Below the pieces are notes generated by a model, which worked only from the letters and a program-made list of their open reading frames with translations, was not told where the DNA came from and searched no databases. A stretch of 64,000 nucleotides of DNA from a bacterium (GTDB taxonomy: Bacteria; Actinomycetota; Acidimicrobiia; Spongiisociales; ZC4RG35), in assembly GCA_024641285.1 (NCBI GenBank), contig JAHEDH010000001.1, positions 4,135 through 68,134 of the forward strand, written 5' to 3'. The position numbers were made by a program, and so were the translations under genes. Of this stretch, positions 27,107 through 35,157 are shown one piece after another. Position 1 is the first letter of the stretch. Each line of letters opens with the position of its first letter.

Positions 27107-28408
27107 CTATGTCGTCCGGTCAGGTTCGAAGTGGCGCTCCAGGGAGTGCCAGACGGACGGGTAGTCGTCCTGGAGGGCGGGGATCGATCCGGCGTAGGCG
27201 GTCGGGATCAGGGGGTATCGCGTCTCGAACATGAATGACATCGTGTCGGACAGTCGATGCGGTTCGAGGTCCGATGTCGTCGCCTTGATCCAGGCGTCGT
27301 GATCGGGTCCGTGAGGGAAGTACATGTTGTGGAGGCTCATTCCCCCAGGGGCGAATCCCTCCTCCTTGGCGTCGTACACGCCGTAGAGGATGCCCATGAA
27401 TTCCGACATGATGTTCTTGTGGTAGTACGGCGGCCGGAACGTGTGCTCACCGACCAGCCAGCGGTCGGCGAAGACCACGAAATCGACGTTTGCGACGCCC
27501 GGGTCGGGGCTGGGGGACGTCAGCACGGTGAAGATCGACGGGTCGGGATGGTCGTAGCTGATCGAACCGATGACATTGAAGAGCCTCAAGTCGTATTTGT
27601 AGGGCACGTGATTCCCGTGCCATCCGACGACGTCGAGGGGCGAGTAGTCGAGCTCCACAGAGAACAACCGGCCGTCGAATTTGACGAACATCTCGCCAGG
27701 CCGCTCGCTGTCCTCGTAGGCCGCCACGGGGCTGAGGAAGTCCCTCGGATTCGCCAGACCGTTCGCTCCGATCGGGCCTCGCTCCGGCAGTTCGAGATAG
27801 GTGCCGTAGTTCTCGCAAACGTAGCCGCGGGCTGTGGCACCGAGCAGGTCGACCCGGAACACCATGCCACGGGGCACGACTCCGATCTCGCCCGGCCCGA
27901 CTTCGAGTATCCCGCACTCGGTTGCCAGCCTGAGACGCCCCTCCTGCGGGACGATCAGCAGCTCTCCGTCGGCGTCGTAGAAGTAACTGTCCTCCATCGA
28001 CCGTGTGGCCATGTAGACGTGCGCCGCCATCCCGGTCTGGGTGTGTGCGTCGCCGTTCGTGGCGATGGTCCGCAGCCCGGTCAGAAAGGTCGTCTCACCG
28101 TCGGGGAACGGCGGCGGGTCCCAGCGGAGCTGCCCGATCGGCGGATTCGCTTCGCGATTCGGAGCACTGCGGATGAAGTGACGGTCGACCTCGGTGAAGC
28201 GCCAGGCATGCCGCACGGACGGCCGTATCCGATAGAACCACGTCCTGCGGTTCCGCGCGTTCGGAACGGTGAACGCCGTACCGGAGAGCTGTTCGGTGTA
28301 CAGGCCGAGCGGGGGTTTCTGCGGATTGTTCTGCCCGACCGGCAGCGCGCCGGACTCCGCCTCGGAGGCGAACTCGTTTCCGAAGCCCGACAGGTACTCG
28401 ACGGCCAT
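27107..28408 (-). CDS. hmgA: Homogentisate 1,2-dioxygenase
   Basis: 433 aa; N-terminus [17 protein letters not shown]..., full-length cupin dioxygenase. Confidence 0.9.
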
Positions 28409-28478: not shown

Positions 28479-28871
28479 TCAGTCGGCTTTCAGGCTCTCG
28501 AGAGCGGCGCGGAGCAGCGATTCCGCCTCTTCTGCGATCGGGACGATCGCCTCTTCACCCGTCACCTGCGACATCATCGCCGGGTCCATCGCCTCCACGA
28601 CCACGCCGTCTTCGACCTGGCGGACGACCACGTTGCACGGCAGGAGTGCACCGATCTGTCGCTGCACGTCGAGCGCCCTGCCGGCGAGATTGGGGTTGCA
28701 CGCCCCGATGATCACGTAGGGCTCGATCTCCTTGCCGATCTTCGCCTGCAGTGTCGCCCGCACGTCGATTTCGGTCAGGGTTCCGAAGCCGCGCTCCGCG
28801 AGCGCAGCCTTCACCTTGGGCAACGCTTCGTCGAGGCTCATGTCGAGGACCACGGCTGGTTCCAGAATCAT
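28479..28871 (-). CDS. DUF302-domain protein
   Basis: 130 aa; DUF302 pattern ([21 protein letters not shown]...[10 protein letters not shown]). Strong RBS GAGAAGGAGAACAG-ATG. Confidence 0.7.
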
Positions 28872-28969
28872 CTGTTCTCCTTCTCTCGGCCCTGACGCTA
28901 CTCATGGCCGGCGAGCGGAGCTCGATGCGTTCGTCAGTCGCCGCTGTTGTAGTGATCGGCCAGCCGATC
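28849..28969. repeat. 121-bp perfect direct repeat, copy 1 (5' end and promoter/RBS of the DUF302 gene plus the 3' end of a PRC-barrel reading frame)
   Basis: Identical to 30152..30272 by direct base-by-base comparison. Confidence 0.85.
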
Positions 28970-29127
28970 CTCCCTTCCCCAGTTCGGTCGATCCGATAGA
29001 TCGCATCGCGGAGCCATTGCACGGTGGACACCAGCGATGAAGACCAATCGCACCTTGGCACGGCCACACTGAGAATGATCTGGAGGAGTCGATCCATTTT
29101 GAGATCAATAATGCATGACACGTGGTG

Positions 29128-30147
29128 TCAGACCGGTGGCAGACCCCTCATCCACATTGCGATCAGGTTACCCACGCCGTCGGGAGCATCCTCAGGCAAC
29201 AGGTGTCTTCCGATCACTTCCACGACCGTTTGGTTTGGGAGCCGTTCTGCTGCGGAGCGCATCCGTCCCGCGAGCATGAATCCTGGCTGTCCGAGAATGA
29301 GCAATTTCGGCACAGGAGAGCGCTCCAGCCACTCCGCGTATTCACCCACGACGAGCCGGGCGGCCTCCGGTTGGCCGGCTACTGGAATCTGCTGGTACGA
29401 CGCGAGATAGGAGCGCCGCGCGTCGGCTCCGCGCTGGAAGTTCTCAGCATATGCTTCCAGGGTTTGACTGTCTGGCGGATAGACCGTCTCACGCCTGAGC
29501 GCATCTTCGAGGTAGGTCTCTGAGTTCACGACGTTCTTCTCGATATCACCAAAGCGCAGTCTCTTGAAGATGGTTCTGAACGGGTCATCGAAGTCCGGCC
29601 ATATTGTTGGTCGCGTGATCGACTCCATGTGCGCGATCGCCCGAACGGACGCTGGGTGCCGAGCAGCCCAATCGAAGCCCACCATTGATGCGGGACCGTG
29701 AAGAACCAAGGTGACGTTGTGATCGATCCCCAGAAGCAACAGCAGTGTCTCGAGCGACGAGCGTTGGAATTCGATCGTGTAGGTGGTTGGCGTGCTACCA
29801 ACGACCCGCTGGGAGGCCCCGGTTCCTGGTAGATCGACCGCAATCACCTTGCCTAGATCCGCAAGATACGGAATCACGCGCCGCCAGGTGTAGGTGGAGC
29901 CGAGCCCCCACTGCAGCAGCACGATCGGTGGTCCTGATCCCACTGTGCGATATGCAAGGTTGAGCCCGGACACATTCAGTCGTTGCGGGGGCCGCAGGCC
30001 CCCTGGGCGCCGAGCGATGATTCGTCGTCTAAACGGAGGCACGTCGGTCGAGGATACGCAACCAACTCGTTCCTTGCCACTGACGGTGACAGCCTTCGGC
30101 CGGGGCCGTCGCGAAGCAGACGCTCGTCCGGTTGATTCAGGCACCAC
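29128..30147 (-). CDS. Alpha/beta-fold hydrolase, haloalkane-dehalogenase-like; nucleophile motif apparently degenerate
   Basis: HLD-like N-terminus (PPIVLLQWGLGSTYTWRRVIPYLADLGKVIAVDLPGTGAS); the HDWGS nucleophile elbow reads HGPAS. True start uncertain; the first about 55 codons are an Arg/Pro-rich extension. Confidence 0.7.
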   Translation of the reverse strand: MVPESTGRASASRRPRPKAVTVSGKERVGCVSSTDVPPFRRRIIARRPGGLRPPQRLNVSGLNLAYRTVGSGPPIVLLQWGLGSTYTWRRVIPYLADLGKVIAVDLPGTGASQRVVGSTPTTYTIEFQRSSLETLLLLLGIDHNVTLVLHGPASMVGFDWAARHPASVRAIAHMESITRPTIWPDFDDPFRTIFKRLRFGDIEKNVVNSETYLEDALRRETVYPPDSQTLEAYAENFQRGADARRSYLASYQQIPVAGQPEAARLVVGEYAEWLERSPVPKLLILGQPGFMLAGRMRSAAERLPNQTVVEVIGRHLLPEDAPDGVGNLIAMWMRGLPPV

Positions 30148-30151
30148 CTGA

Positions 30152-30272
30152 CACGGCTGGTTCCAGAATCATCTGTTCTCCTTCTCTCGGCCCTGACGCT
30201 ACTCATGGCCGGCGAGCGGAGCTCGATGCGTTCGTCAGTCGCCGCTGTTGTAGTGATCGGCCAGCCGATCCT
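30152..30272. repeat. 121-bp perfect direct repeat, copy 2 (gives the hydrolase gene a DUF302-derived promoter/RBS and a MILEPAVSGGA mini-ORF)
   Basis: Identical to 28849..28969; bracketed segment is 1182 bp. Confidence 0.85.
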
Positions 30273-30546
30273 GAAGCTCCCGGGTCACGATGTGCTCCTT
30301 CGGCGCCTTGGGCGCCGTGCGCACGCGCTCCGCCTCGAAGGGCAGCACGATCCTCCCGTCTCCGGTTCGGCCGAACCGGTCGATCGGGACGTAGCGGCTC
30401 GCCCGGAACGGTCCCGGATCCACCACGGCGAAGCGCGCGGCCGGGCCTGCGTCCTCGAAGATGACATCGACGACCTTCCCGATCGGCTCGTGGCGAAGGT
30501 CGATCACGATGCGGCCGACCAGGCCGCTGTCTGAGCTGGCTGTCAC
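30235..30546 (-). CDS. PRC-barrel-domain protein
   Basis: 103 aa; IGKVVDVIFED...VPIDRFGRTGDGRIVLPF pattern. Last 13 codons lie inside repeat copy 2. Confidence 0.5.
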   Translation of the reverse strand: MTASSDSGLVGRIVIDLRHEPIGKVVDVIFEDAGPAARFAVVDPGPFRASRYVPIDRFGRTGDGRIVLPFEAERVRTAPKAPKEHIVTRELQDRLADHYNSGD

Positions 30547-30648
30547 AGCTCCCCCTTTCTTCGCCCCCTGGCCCGACCTCTGTCAAACATAGGGCTCGAA
30601 CGGGCCGCATGTCCAGCAATTCCCTAGGGCCCGCTCCGGGGCGCGGAC

Positions 30649-31942: not shown

Positions 31943-32884
31943 TCACCGGGCCACCTCGACGAGCGCCGAGTCGATTCGGTCCAGCAGCGTGTCGCCACCG
32001 TGACCGGCGTCCGACATCACCTCGAGCCGGCTCGTCTTCCACGACCTCGCGAGCCTCCACGGCACCTCGAGCGGGCTGCTGACGTCGTAGCGACCGTGGA
32101 TGAGCACACCCGGAATGCCGTCGAGCTCGTGCGCCCGCTCGAGGATCGGAGCATCGTCCAGGAAGGCAGAGTTGCGCCAATAGTGGGTGACCAACCTGGC
32201 GAAGCGAAGGCGGAAGACCGGGTCGTCGTAGTGTGGAGACGGACGATGACCGGGAGCCAGCGAGACGTGGGCGTCCTCCCAGCGGCACCATTCATACGCT
32301 GCGGTCTCCTGCATGACGGGATCGAACAGCATCTCTGCGTAGGCGTCGACGAGCCTGAGGTTGCGCAGCTCGTCGGGAACGAGCGATCGGAATCGGTGCC
32401 ACTCTTCGGGAAAGATGCGACCGACCCCTTCGGTGATCCAGTCGACCTCATCACGCGATGTGGTGGTCACGAGCGCAAGGACGAGCCCACCGATCCGCTC
32501 GGGATGTGCGAGTGCGTATGCCAGCCCAAGCGTCGTTCCCCACGACATGCCGAGTACCACGGCCCACCGTTCGATGCCGAGCATCTCTCGCAGGGCCTCG
32601 ATGTCGGAGATCAGGTGTGGCGTCGTGTTCAGTCCCAGGTCGGGAGCAGTTGCCAGATCCAGCGGTGTGCTCTTCCCCGAGCCTCGCTGGTCGAACAGGA
32701 CCGCACGATGGACCGCAGGATCGATCAAGCGCCGCTGGCCGGGCGAGCACCCCGACCCGGGGCCACCGTGGAGGAACAGCGCGGGGCGACCCGAGCGAAC
32801 GCCGACTTCCTCCCAGTAGACGTGATGCCCGTCGCCCCTGTCGAGGGTGCCCGAAGCATTCGGCTCGATGTGATTGCTGGTCAA
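31943..32884 (-). CDS. pip: Proline iminopeptidase (S33 alpha/beta hydrolase)
   Basis: 313 aa; HGGPGSG, FDQRGSGKS, nucleophile GMSWGTTL; classic Pip layout. Confidence 0.85.
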   Translation of the reverse strand: MTSNHIEPNASGTLDRGDGHHVYWEEVGVRSGRPALFLHGGPGSGCSPGQRRLIDPAVHRAVLFDQRGSGKSTPLDLATAPDLGLNTTPHLISDIEALREMLGIERWAVVLGMSWGTTLGLAYALAHPERIGGLVLALVTTTSRDEVDWITEGVGRIFPEEWHRFRSLVPDELRNLRLVDAYAEMLFDPVMQETAAYEWCRWEDAHVSLAPGHRPSPHYDDPVFRLRFARLVTHYWRNSAFLDDAPILERAHELDGIPGVLIHGRYDVSSPLEVPWRLARSWKTSRLEVMSDAGHGGDTLLDRIDSALVEVAR

Positions 32885-32996: not shown

Positions 32997-34496
32997 TCAG
33001 ATTCGGCCGTCGCTCAGACCCCGCTTGACGAAAGCGGCTCGATCACGGACCTCTTCGAGATCGGAGAGCCGGTCGAGGTTCGCCAGCGGCCTCGCCATGC
33101 GGTGGTTCGACCCGAGTCGCTCGCGGTGGCGATCGAGAAAGTCCCAGTAGAGCGTCGTGAATGGGCAGGCATCCTCGCCGACCCGGTTGCGAGGGTTGAA
33201 GGCGCACGTCGAGCAGTAGTCGCTCATCCGGTTGATGTAGGCACCACCTGATATGTAGGGCTTGGTAGCCATGCGTCCGCCGTCCGCCCACAGTCCCATC
33301 CCCATCACGTTCGGCACCATCACCCATTCCGCGCCGTCGATGTACTGACCCAGCATCCAGTCCATCAGTCGTCGTGGCTCGACGCCGTAGAGGTTGGCGA
33401 GGTTGGAGAGAATCATCAGCCGGGGGATGTGGTGCACCCAGGCGCGCGCACGCAGGCCGTCGAGCGTGTCGGCGAGGCACGCCATGTCGGTTCGCGCGTC
33501 GCCGGTGAACGCCGGCGGGATGTGGCGCCGGTGATCCAGCACATTGGACTCGATGTGATCGGGCCAGAGCCAATAGAGGCCCCAGACGTACTCCCTCCAT
33601 CCGATGACCTGGCGGATGAATCCTTCGGCGGAGCTGATGGGAACGTCACCGTTGCGATATGCGGCTTCGACCCGATCGCAGACCTCGTCCGGCATCAACA
33701 GGCCGAGATTGAGGTATGGGCTCAGCACGGAGTGGGCCAGGCTCCAGGACTGCGATGTCATGGCGTCCTCGAATGGGCCGAACCGCGCCAACTCGTTGTC
33801 GACGAAGTGATCGAGTCGGGCGAGCGCAGCCCGGCGGCTTGTCGCCCAGATGCCGATCGGCTCGTCCCCGTGCGTCTGGGGCAACGAGGAGAGCACCTCT
33901 GCGTCGAGGTCATCGAGTCGGGATAGGGGCGGATGGGAGAAGATCGAGACATCGTCGGGTGGCGGCTCGCGGTTGTCCTCGTCGAAGTTCCACCGGCCCT
34001 CGACGGGCGCGCCTTCGCCTTCCATGAGGTAGCCGAGGCGGTTTCTGGTCCATCGATAGAACGTCTCCATCCTCAGCGATTTCTGGCCCTCCGCCCAGTT
34101 CTCGAACTCGGCGTGGTGGCAGAGGAACTGGTTCGATCGGACCTGTTGGATTCCCATGTCGTCGCACAGGTCTCGAGCGCGACGCGAGTTCGGCTCGGTT
34201 GCGGTCACTGCGTCCGGGTGGTGATCGTCGATGTGGGATCGGATTCCATCGCGCAAGGTGGCGGCTCGGCGCAGGTCGACCTCGTAGCCGGCGCCCTCGA
34301 GCTCGGTTGCGAAGCGCCTCATGGCCGCGATCACCAGATGGTTGCGCTGCACATGCCTGCCCAGTCCGAGCAGCTGTTCGCTCTCGACGAGCAGGACTCG
34401 CACCGAGCCGGGGTCGGCGGCGGCGAGTGCTCCGATCCTCCGGTTGAGTTGGTCGCCAAACACCAGGACGGTCCGCACGGGTGCAGTCTGCCCCAT
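32997..34496 (-). CDS. Cryptochrome/photolyase-family protein of the FeS-BCP/CryPro type ((6-4) photolyase PhrB-like, 4Fe-4S cluster)
   Basis: About 499 aa from ATG 34496; FAD-binding photolyase C-domain; four-Cys cluster pattern ...DYCSTCAFNP...ACPF.... The longer listed ORF overlaps the divergent TetR gene. Confidence 0.7.
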   Translation of the reverse strand: MGQTAPVRTVLVFGDQLNRRIGALAAADPGSVRVLLVESEQLLGLGRHVQRNHLVIAAMRRFATELEGAGYEVDLRRAATLRDGIRSHIDDHHPDAVTATEPNSRRARDLCDDMGIQQVRSNQFLCHHAEFENWAEGQKSLRMETFYRWTRNRLGYLMEGEGAPVEGRWNFDEDNREPPPDDVSIFSHPPLSRLDDLDAEVLSSLPQTHGDEPIGIWATSRRAALARLDHFVDNELARFGPFEDAMTSQSWSLAHSVLSPYLNLGLLMPDEVCDRVEAAYRNGDVPISSAEGFIRQVIGWREYVWGLYWLWPDHIESNVLDHRRHIPPAFTGDARTDMACLADTLDGLRARAWVHHIPRLMILSNLANLYGVEPRRLMDWMLGQYIDGAEWVMVPNVMGMGLWADGGRMATKPYISGGAYINRMSDYCSTCAFNPRNRVGEDACPFTTLYWDFLDRHRERLGSNHRMARPLANLDRLSDLEEVRDRAAFVKRGLSDGRI

Positions 34497-34567
34497 TCCG
34501 TGTGGTTCCAAACGATCGAAGTGACCCAAGAGCCTCTTGCGTGTTGCGACCGTTGGTCGTAGGGTCA

Positions 34568-34593
34568 TTAACCAGATGGTTAAGGCATCTGGT
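34568..34593. promoter_or_regulatory. Nested inverted repeats TTAACC-agat-GGTTAA and CCAGATG-N8-CATCTGG between the photolyase and TetR genes; candidate TetR operator
   Basis: Read directly from the sequence; lies in the 103-bp divergent intergenic region. Confidence 0.4.
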
Positions 34594-34599
34594 GAGGAC

Positions 34600-35157
34600 A
34601 TGCGAACGGTGATCGTCCGATCCACCGTCGAGCTCATCGGCGAGATCGGTTGGAGCGAGATCACGACCCGCAAGGTCGCCCAGCGGTCGGGTGTCAACAA
34701 CGCCCTCATCCACTACTACTTCGGCTCCAAGGAGGCGCTGCTCCGAGAGGCCGTGCTCACCCTGTTCGGCGAGGAGTTCGAGCGGCCGCTGTCTGCGATC
34801 CTCGCAGCAGACGACATCTTCACCGGCCTCGACGAGCTGTTCGAGGCCATCGGCGAGCTGGACATGACCCAAGTCCGGCTCGTCGCGCTCAGCGAAGCGA
34901 TGCTCCAGGGCGTACGTGACGACGTGATTCGCGGCTGGATCCAGCAGGTCCTCGATGAGACGGTGGACCGCCTGGCCGCCCTCATCTCCGCCGGCCAGAA
35001 CGCACATCGCGTCAGAGCCGATCTCGATGCCGCAGGCGCCGCGCTGGTGATCGTCGGCCTGATCGACGCCCTCGTCCTCTACAGGTTCAACCATCCCACG
35101 CTCGACCTCGAACCATCGAGGCGGGCCGTCCACACGATGCTCGCGCCACAGGAGTAG
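34600..35157 (+). CDS. TetR/AcrR-family transcriptional regulator
   Basis: HTH TRKVAQRSGVNNALIHYYFGSKEALL. Start ambiguous (ATG 34537, 34576 or 34600); 34600 leaves the palindrome intergenic. Confidence 0.7.
   Translation: MRTVIVRSTVELIGEIGWSEITTRKVAQRSGVNNALIHYYFGSKEALLREAVLTLFGEEFERPLSAILAADDIFTGLDELFEAIGELDMTQVRLVALSEAMLQGVRDDVIRGWIQQVLDETVDRLAALISAGQNAHRVRADLDAAGAALVIVGLIDALVLYRFNHPTLDLEPSRRAVHTMLAPQE

Follow-up and report, generated by a model that had tools for sequence, protein, structure and literature searches.

A perfect 121-bp direct repeat around a LinB-like hydrolase gene in an uncultured member of the Acidimicrobiia, a possible remnant of duplicative rearrangement

A 64,000-nucleotide stretch of contig JAHEDH010000001.1 (assembly GCA_024641285.1), referred to here as the window, contains a LinB-like alpha/beta-hydrolase gene that lies between two perfect copies of a 121-bp direct repeat, at the junction of a PRC-barrel gene and a DUF302 gene. 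We consider it about an even chance (probability near 0.5) that the repeat is what survives of a duplicative rearrangement that joined sequence head to tail at the PRC-barrel/DUF302 junction and not a target-site duplication left by an inserting element. This explanation is suggested primarily by the DNA between the two copies, which reads as a patchwork with diverged scraps of host genes at both ends and a hydrolase cassette plus 124 nt in the middle. The window is part of an NCBI metagenome-derived contig of 75,690 bp. Coordinates are positions in the window, and all genes at the locus are on the minus strand.

The repeat and the DNA between its copies

A repeat search and direct reading of the sequence demonstrated that positions 28851-28971 and 30152-30272 are identical over 121/121 nucleotides, at a spacing of 1301. 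A match of this length cannot be chance. In gene direction the order at the locus is the DPRP/photolyase-related gene (DPRP), abh2, M24, PRC-barrel, repeat copy 2, a 1180-bp piece (28972-30151) with an Abhydrolase_1 open reading frame (ORF), repeat copy 1, DUF302, and hmgA. Pfam supports the DUF302, PRC, Abhydrolase_1, and HgmA assignments. On the minus strand the repeat comprises the last 11 codons of the PRC-barrel gene and its stop codon (DRLADHYNSGD-stop), a 61-nt spacer, GAGAAGGAGAACAG, an ATG, and the codons MILEPAV. Copy 2 (30152-30272) holds the true PRC-barrel 3' end, the 61-nt spacer, and a duplicated DUF302 ribosome-binding site (RBS), ATG, and seven codons. Copy 1 (28851-28971) holds a duplicated PRC-barrel 3' end followed by the spacer, RBS, and DUF302 start in their native place. 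The first-pass annotation of this DNA had recognized the perfect duplication, and its account of the repeat content and of the native context of each copy was confirmed by reading. However, its coordinates for copy 1 (28849-28969) were off by 2 nt, and the intervening piece that it gave as 1182 bp is 1180 bp.

The intervening piece had been described as the hydrolase gene with a low-GC tail, but both of its ends are diverged host copies (DPRP, 33251 to 33207, and PRC-barrel, 30386 to 30348). The upstream end, starting at the first base past copy 2, is a DPRP-derived patch (30107-30151). Read from 30151 to 30107, it matches 33251 to 33207 in the window's own DPRP gene, on the same strand, at 38/45 positions, including 28/31 over its first 31 nt. 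This source (33207-33251) is inside the DPRP gene (32997-34709), 3.1 kb upstream. It encodes the invariant motif ISGGAYINRMSDYCS, in place of which the patch reads SGGA-stop-INRTSVCF. With blastn, the patch had an E value of 7e-8 when searched against the window and of 1e-7 when all 176 loci were added. The patch is nearer to the window's own gene than to the orthologues (29-32/45), and its first 12 nt share the window-specific synonymous codons TCA GGT GGT GCC. The reading frame that continues past copy 2 is SGGA followed by a TGA (30139-30137) in place of TAC, which results in a mini-ORF, MILEPAVSGGA-stop (30137-30172), that fuses seven DUF302 codons to the DPRP-derived scrap. The tail of this mini-ORF, SGGA-stop, is what is left of the DPRP motif ISGGAY after decay.

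The downstream end of the piece is a PRC-derived patch (28972-29003) that runs into a heptamer, AGGATCG (28965-28971), shared with copy 1. Together with these first 7 nt of copy 1, the patch matches the PRC-barrel gene, read from 30386 to 30348, at 32/39 positions (E value of 4e-4 in 1.5 Mb), and its score was reached by 1/300 shuffles when the comparison was made with the PRC gene only. This patch also is nearer to the window's own PRC gene (25/32) than to the orthologues (19/32). The PRC segment missing on the copy 1 side is 82 nt long (30273-30354) and is bounded by AGGATCG direct repeats at 30348-30354 and 30266-30272 (offsets of 1301 and 1383). Thus, the copy 1 side has the form of a piece of the PRC gene from which 82 bp between two 7-nt AGGATCG repeats have been deleted.

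A tail of unassigned origin (124 nt, 29004-29127) lies 3' of the stop of the hydrolase gene. In no search was a match to it found, in DNA or protein (relatives' loci, plasmid and phage collections, and protein representatives); a comparison of its peptide with 1.84 billion representative proteins yielded only spurious summed matches to giant repetitive proteins; and the hydrolase homologues showed no similarity 3' of the stop codon. It was also considered whether the whole tail might be a decayed second PRC-barrel gene. The PRC hidden Markov model matched only RIDRTGEGRI in the six-frame translation of the window, at chance level (E values of 1.8-4.8), and this possibility was rejected beyond the 32-39-nt patch. 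A weak terminator-like hairpin with a T-rich stretch is present within the tail at 29062-29049 (minus strand), between the hydrolase gene and copy 1. The GC content of the insert is 0.60, compared with a window mean of 0.657, and the GC content at third codon positions (GC3) of the hydrolase gene is 0.67, compared with 0.80-0.875 in six neighboring genes and 0.735 in BTAD. Self-comparison revealed no second copy of the insert within the 64-kb window.

Both junctions of the insert exist outside this assembly. Logan contig SRR12825431_1296101 (L176; run SRR12825431, k = 31, 1240 bp), an independent assembly that is possibly from the same sample, corresponds to window positions 30181 to 28942 with one single-nucleotide polymorphism (SNP). 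It consists of the 1180-bp insert plus exactly 30 nt (k - 1) of repeat at each end. These are the ends that a repeat imposes on a k = 31 graph. The SNP, at window position 29435, changes Q to P and provides a second hydrolase sequence that differs by 1 aa. L176 thus has the same structure in a slightly different strain or dataset.

Close relatives were retrieved through DUF302 and PRC homologues; their hmgA genes are 91-93% identical to that of the window in amino acids and 79-85% in nucleotides. Seventeen of the retrieved loci, several of them overlapping assemblies of the same sequences, carry the repeat segment once, with the PRC-barrel gene next to DUF302 and no hydrolase gene. In loci L084-L086, L167, L168, and L170-L175 the PRC-barrel gene is followed directly by DUF302 and hmgA, without the hydrolase gene. 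In L164-L166 the order is M24-DUF302-hmgA, with PRC missing. The hydrolase gene is missing at this position in every relative. In L167 (2395-2513) and L170 (265-389) one and the same stretch can be aligned with either window copy, and collinearity extends into each flank, for copy 2 with L167 2055-2513 and L170 1-389 and for copy 1 with L167 2395-2953 and L170 265-2100. The 121-bp segment is therefore demonstrably single-copy in L167 and L170, and the single-copy state across the relatives with the PRC-DUF302 junction is what would be expected if the window carries a duplication or template-switch scar. These alignments support an uninterrupted PRC-barrel/DUF302/hmgA arrangement as the ancestral order, which is the arrangement that the first-pass annotation had reconstructed. 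The species-representative Acidimicrobiia found via hmgA (71-87% amino acid identity) have no DUF302, PRC, or hydrolase gene near hmgA and are uninformative for the junction.

The hydrolase gene and its upstream region

The hydrolase gene (29128-30042) encodes 304 aa from GTG 30042, belongs to Pfam PF00561, and resembles LinB (PDB 4h7k, E value of 3e-59). Three gene models compete: a mechanical ORF of 339 aa from GTG 30147, because the frame is open from 30147 to 29128; an NCBI call of 264 aa (MLLQWG...) from 29922; and the 304-aa model. The starts of the homologues (P0002, MARFLPF..., 304 aa; L081; and L083) align with GTG 30042 (MPPFRRR...) and favor the 304-aa model. GTG 30042 is most likely the start, the extension to GTG 30147 is probably noncoding, and the NCBI call appears too short. 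The closest homologues outside this strain are 63-74% identical in amino acids and are found in unrelated contexts.

The region immediately upstream of GTG 30042 (30043-30106) appears to be native to the hydrolase gene. It contains a -35-like GTGGCA (30080-30075), an 18-nt spacer, and a -10-like TATCCT (30056-30051), which is 8 nt from the GTG. Three islands are conserved with L081 and L083 (alignment A3): CACCGTCAGTG, which holds GTGGCA; after the 18-nt spacer, GCGTATCCTC, which holds TATCCT (GCGTATYCTC); and, after a further 8 nt, ACGTG. These promoter-like islands are common to three unrelated genomic contexts (window 30043-30106, L083 1417-1540, and L081 at about 2050-2100). The joint of the DPRP scrap and the hydrolase region reads GCCTGAATCAACCGGACGAGCGTCTGC. 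The upstream homology to L081 and L083 starts near 30100, exactly at the end of the DPRP patch, which suggests that the hydrolase gene brought its own promoter-like region with it. The gene probably uses this promoter, and the spacing indicates that its mRNA is probably leaderless or has a very short leader. Leaderless mRNAs are common in Actinobacteria. Read-through from PRC or from the copied DUF302 upstream region may add to expression.

It had been proposed in the first-pass annotation that the duplication gives the hydrolase gene the DUF302 promoter and RBS, in an arrangement compatible with coupling of its translation, from GTG 30147, to the mini-ORF. A gene that starts at GTG 30042 with promoter-like motifs of its own would not depend on the copied signals. 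The mini-ORF is present, and its stop codon does overlap GTG 30147. However, a hydrolase start at that GTG is unlikely, and thus coupling to the mini-ORF is unlikely as well. The spacer within the repeat has a motif, GAGTA(G/C)CGT, about 25 nt upstream of the DUF302 ATG, that is conserved together with the Shine-Dalgarno (SD) sequence in relatives, including those without PRC (alignment A2). This motif (window 28872-28935 and 30173-30236) is kept even though the spacers of the relatives otherwise diverge, and is a candidate for a -10-like or regulatory site of DUF302/hmgA. A consensus scan of the repeat and spacer identified no sigma-70-type promoter and no intrinsic terminator.

The predicted protein differs from LinB at the active site. 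When it was aligned with 4h7k, D108 was replaced by G, W109 by P, and N38 by G, and the His and Glu were retained. The HLD-II catalytic pentad (nucleophile Asp, base His, acid Glu, and the halide-binding Asn and Trp) is thus incomplete. Homologues P0002-P0009 share the motif HG[PTSW]AS. The replacement of the nucleophile Asp with Gly characterizes a conserved LinB-like (HLD-II) subfamily (the window, P0002-P0009, L081, and L083), with LVLHGPASMVGFDW in place of HDWGS and with the Trp and Asn for halide binding lost. The protein is of LinB type in fold and homology, yet it probably does not act as a dehalogenase. The JGI label "haloalkane dehalogenase" on such proteins is probably wrong.

Origin of the arrangement

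In gene direction, the intact PRC gene, the spacer, and DUF302 codons 1-7 come first and are followed by an abrupt jump back of 3.1 kb into DPRP at 33251, which can be tracked for about 45 nt. Next comes a foreign cassette of about 1.1 kb (1103 nt), consisting of the LinB-like hydrolase gene, with its own promoter-like motifs and start, plus the 124 nt. The sequence then re-enters the PRC gene at 30386 for about 32 nt and, after the 82-nt skip between AGGATCG repeats, continues through the PRC 3' end, the spacer, and DUF302 a second time. In the rearrangement that we propose, this structure would have originated with a tandem duplication of 33251 to 30152 (3100 nt), which would have created the new joint between DUF302 codon 7 and DPRP 33251. 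The interior of the second copy (2820 nt, comprising the DPRP 3' end, abh2, M24, and the 5' part of PRC) would later have given way to the cassette, with further trimming through a microhomology deletion. The same product would also be expected if replication had switched templates several times in a single event. The 121 bp would have been kept identical by gene conversion between the copies, in a block bounded by heterology on both sides, and the 32-45-nt patches, too short to recombine, would have decayed to 82-90% identity. We infer both the order of these events and the role of gene conversion in maintaining the 121-bp identity. Gene conversion between repeats has been documented in Actinobacteria (PMC12046097). 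In E. coli experiments, tandem duplications and deletions with microhomology joints have put transferred genes behind host promoters (PMC6614815; PMC11111574).

Several features of the locus are consistent with this proposal. There is a novel joint, from downstream to upstream in direct orientation: position 30152 is followed at once by the DPRP sequence, 33251 to 33207, on the same strand. The surviving pieces are collinear, because the DPRP patch, the PRC patch, and the PRC 3' end/spacer/DUF302 start follow each other in chromosomal order. Both limits of perfect identity fall on structural discontinuities, as would be expected if conversion was confined to the homologous block. The first-pass annotation had favored a simple insertion with duplication of the 121-bp junction, but the host-derived ends of the insert point instead to a duplicative or template-switch rearrangement.

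Other observations weigh against a duplicative rearrangement. The duplicated pieces do not appear to be of equal age, with 121/121 identity in the repeat versus 38/45 and 25/32 in the patches. The patches differ from their sources by 10-18%, and at such divergence the probability of finding no mismatch in 121 nt is at most 3e-6. Thus, a perfect 121-bp repeat beside diverged patches requires either a single old event with ongoing gene conversion or a two-step history. The differences between patches and sources are mostly nonsynonymous or stop changes, and they are on the patch side. Error-prone synthesis was considered as the cause of these mismatches and was rejected because polymerase error rates are far below 10-18%. 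The low GC3 of the hydrolase gene suggests a fairly recent arrival, a poor fit with decayed patches. The DUF302/DPRP joint lacks microhomology. The PRC patch is short, and when it was compared with the whole window 9/60 shuffles attained its score. Furthermore, no intermediate with the full 3.1-kb duplication, and no closer relative, was present among the loci found; the nearest relative is 84.5% identical in nucleotides, with a divergence at four-fold sites (K4) of 0.67.

The disparity between the repeat and the patches would be explained without gene conversion if an old, preformed mosaic (DPRP scrap, hydrolase gene, PRC scrap) had recently been inserted with a target duplication of 114-121 bp. 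The mosaic might have come from a decayed paralogous copy of the locus elsewhere or from a related donor. It might have entered by end-joining at a staggered break, by a return template switch 121 nt behind the point of departure via AGGATCG, or by a Campbell-type crossover of a 1.3-kb circle. The 7-nt microhomology at one junction and the still foreign-looking composition of the hydrolase gene suit a recent insertion, and the Logan contig is equally compatible with it. However, such an insertion requires an unseen source locus, and no second copy is present in the 64-kb window. A circle of this kind would have neither a replication nor an integration function. Two further matters would have to be coincidences: that the genes from which the scraps derive are the two located just upstream of the target, with chromosomal order and orientation kept, and that the scraps are more like the window's own alleles than like the orthologues. 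We therefore regard recent insertion as a possible but less probable history and prefer duplication with gene conversion, which needs no unseen source and explains where the scraps come from, their order, and their closeness to this genome's own genes.

The insertion envisioned in the first-pass annotation, in which a foreign 1.18-kb fragment arrived with duplication of the 121-bp junction and came under the control of a copied DUF302 promoter and RBS with mini-ORF coupling via GTG 30147, seems unlikely. The ancestral adjacency and the contrast between filled and empty sites are real, the copied spacer with its conserved GAGTA(G/C)CGT and SD could carry a promoter, and the mini-ORF stop overlaps GTG 30147. 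Yet the ends of the insert are host derived, the homologue starts match GTG 30042 in alignment, the supposed N-terminal extension contains conserved -35/-10-like motifs, and the consensus scan detected no sigma-70-type promoter in the spacer. It is much more doubtful still that the structure is an assembly artefact or reflects a mixed population, with an empty site in the true chromosome and the 1301-bp unit a misthreaded repeat path or a circular by-product. The window does come from a metagenome-derived contig, at k of 121 or less short-read graphs alone cannot establish how paths run through a 121-bp repeat, and L176 ends 30 nt into the repeat on both sides. However, both junction sequences recur in that independent assembly with a single SNP, a path requires each junction in real DNA, a 1.3-kb circle without a replication function is implausible, and a repeat of this length is resolved directly by assemblers that use k above 121. 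The artefact that the first-pass annotation had raised as a concern is thus countered at both junctions, and the span across each full copy rests on the window assembly. We give little credence to the idea that the cassette belongs to an unrecognized class of enzyme-less "hitch-hiking" gene cassettes that move by template switching or end-joining, make target duplications of about 100 bp, and carry scraps of earlier sites at their ends. Similarly improbable is the corollary that the portable unit would be the conserved promoter plus leaderless start, for which the homologues L081 and L083 in unrelated contexts could be cited.

A duplicative rearrangement at the PRC-barrel/DUF302 junction is also to be preferred over known classes of mobile elements. 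Pfam analysis of the neighbors identified no transposase, integrase, or other mobile-element gene within 10 kb on either side; a repeat search found no terminal inverted repeats at the insert ends; scans for tRNAs and with Rfam found nothing; and there was no match in plasmid and phage collections. No attC-like fold was found in the tail, which folds no better than shuffles (z = -1.35; no dedicated attC model was run). Target-site duplications of transposons and insertion sequences (IS) are usually 2-14 bp. The locus resembles such insertions in that direct target repeats flank extra DNA, but the duplication is 121 bp, the hydrolase gene is the sole gene in the insert, there is no transposase or terminal inverted repeat, and the ends are host gene fragments. 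As in islands flanked by att repeats and in integron cassettes, a single gene lies between direct repeats at a gene 3' end. Unlike in those systems, there is no integrase within 10 kb, no tRNA target, no attC-like structure downstream of the ORF, and no plasmid or phage match.

Neighboring genes, comparable rearrangements, and significance

The genes that flank the insert are typical of the locus in relatives. The PRC-barrel gene is intact (30235-30546, 103 aa, Pfam PF05239), and homologues that are 75-83% identical adjoin DUF302 in relatives. The DUF302 gene (28479-28871, 130 aa, Pfam PF03625) has relatives that are 80-89% identical, and hmgA (27107-28408) is downstream of it. Upstream of the PRC-barrel gene are the M24 peptidase gene (31998 to 30649) and the alpha/beta-hydrolase gene abh2 (32884 to 31943). 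As listed, the M24 ORF (449 aa) shares 56 nt (31943-31998) with the end of abh2. In relatives M24 is called at 415 aa with a 4-nt overlap, and therefore its true start is probably further downstream. Exact-protein look-ups for three window genes returned no match.

The M24-DUF302 interval (window 30547-30648; L084-L086, L164-L167, and L172-L175) is a plasticity spot in which the PRC-barrel gene may be present or absent. Depending on the relative, it is empty or holds a gene for a 388-aa membrane protein, a 317-aa gene, or a 118-aa gene. M24 and most of abh2 have been lost as well in L167. DUF302 is directly upstream of hmgA in all close relatives (L084-L086 and L164-L175) but not in the distant Acidimicrobiia representatives L001-L009. 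Thus, the adjacency of DUF302 and hmgA may be a clade-specific functional link.

The closest experimental parallel is tandem duplication with a novel join and promoter capture (Li & Bock 2019, PMC6614815; PMC11111574). As in those experiments, a head-to-tail joint fuses a downstream host promoter, RBS, and first DUF302 codons to upstream sequence, a microhomology-type deletion is nearby, and a foreign gene lies behind host expression signals. In contrast, only 45-, 32-, and 121-nt scraps of the duplicated segment survive in the window, the foreign gene is inside the second copy and is not part of the duplicated unit, the joint lacks microhomology, and the gene keeps its own promoter-like motifs.

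Template-switching rearrangements with short templated insertions from nearby, known as fork stalling and template switching (FoSTeS) or MMBIR, break-induced replication mediated by microhomology, are known chiefly from eukaryotes and from amplification in E. coli. The locus is similar in that its breakpoints are clustered in about 1.3 kb, short same-orientation copies come from a few kilobases away, and a duplication flanks the insert. However, patches that are 82-90% identical to their templates are not expected of a fresh event. A Campbell-type single crossover yields A-X-A, in which A is a perfect direct target repeat, and needs a circular donor that carries A. The product in the window has the A-X-A form, but X is without vector, replication, or integrase function, and the donor would already have to hold the 121 bp. 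The locus is thus an instance of known rearrangement processes, with breakpoints that are unusually legible.

The hydrolase start at GTG 30042, in place of either 30147 or the NCBI 264-aa call, would correct the gene model, and the protein flags an HLD-like family without the nucleophile. The locus would provide a natural example, in an uncultured member of the Acidimicrobiia, of an acquired gene that was fixed in a chromosomal hot spot by duplicative illegitimate recombination and not by a mobile element, with four breakpoints that are all still readable. It suggests that a long "target-site duplication" can be what a larger duplication leaves behind after homogenization. Should conversion maintain the 121 bp while the 32-45-nt scraps decay, the locus would also place a natural bracket on the minimal recombination length in this group.

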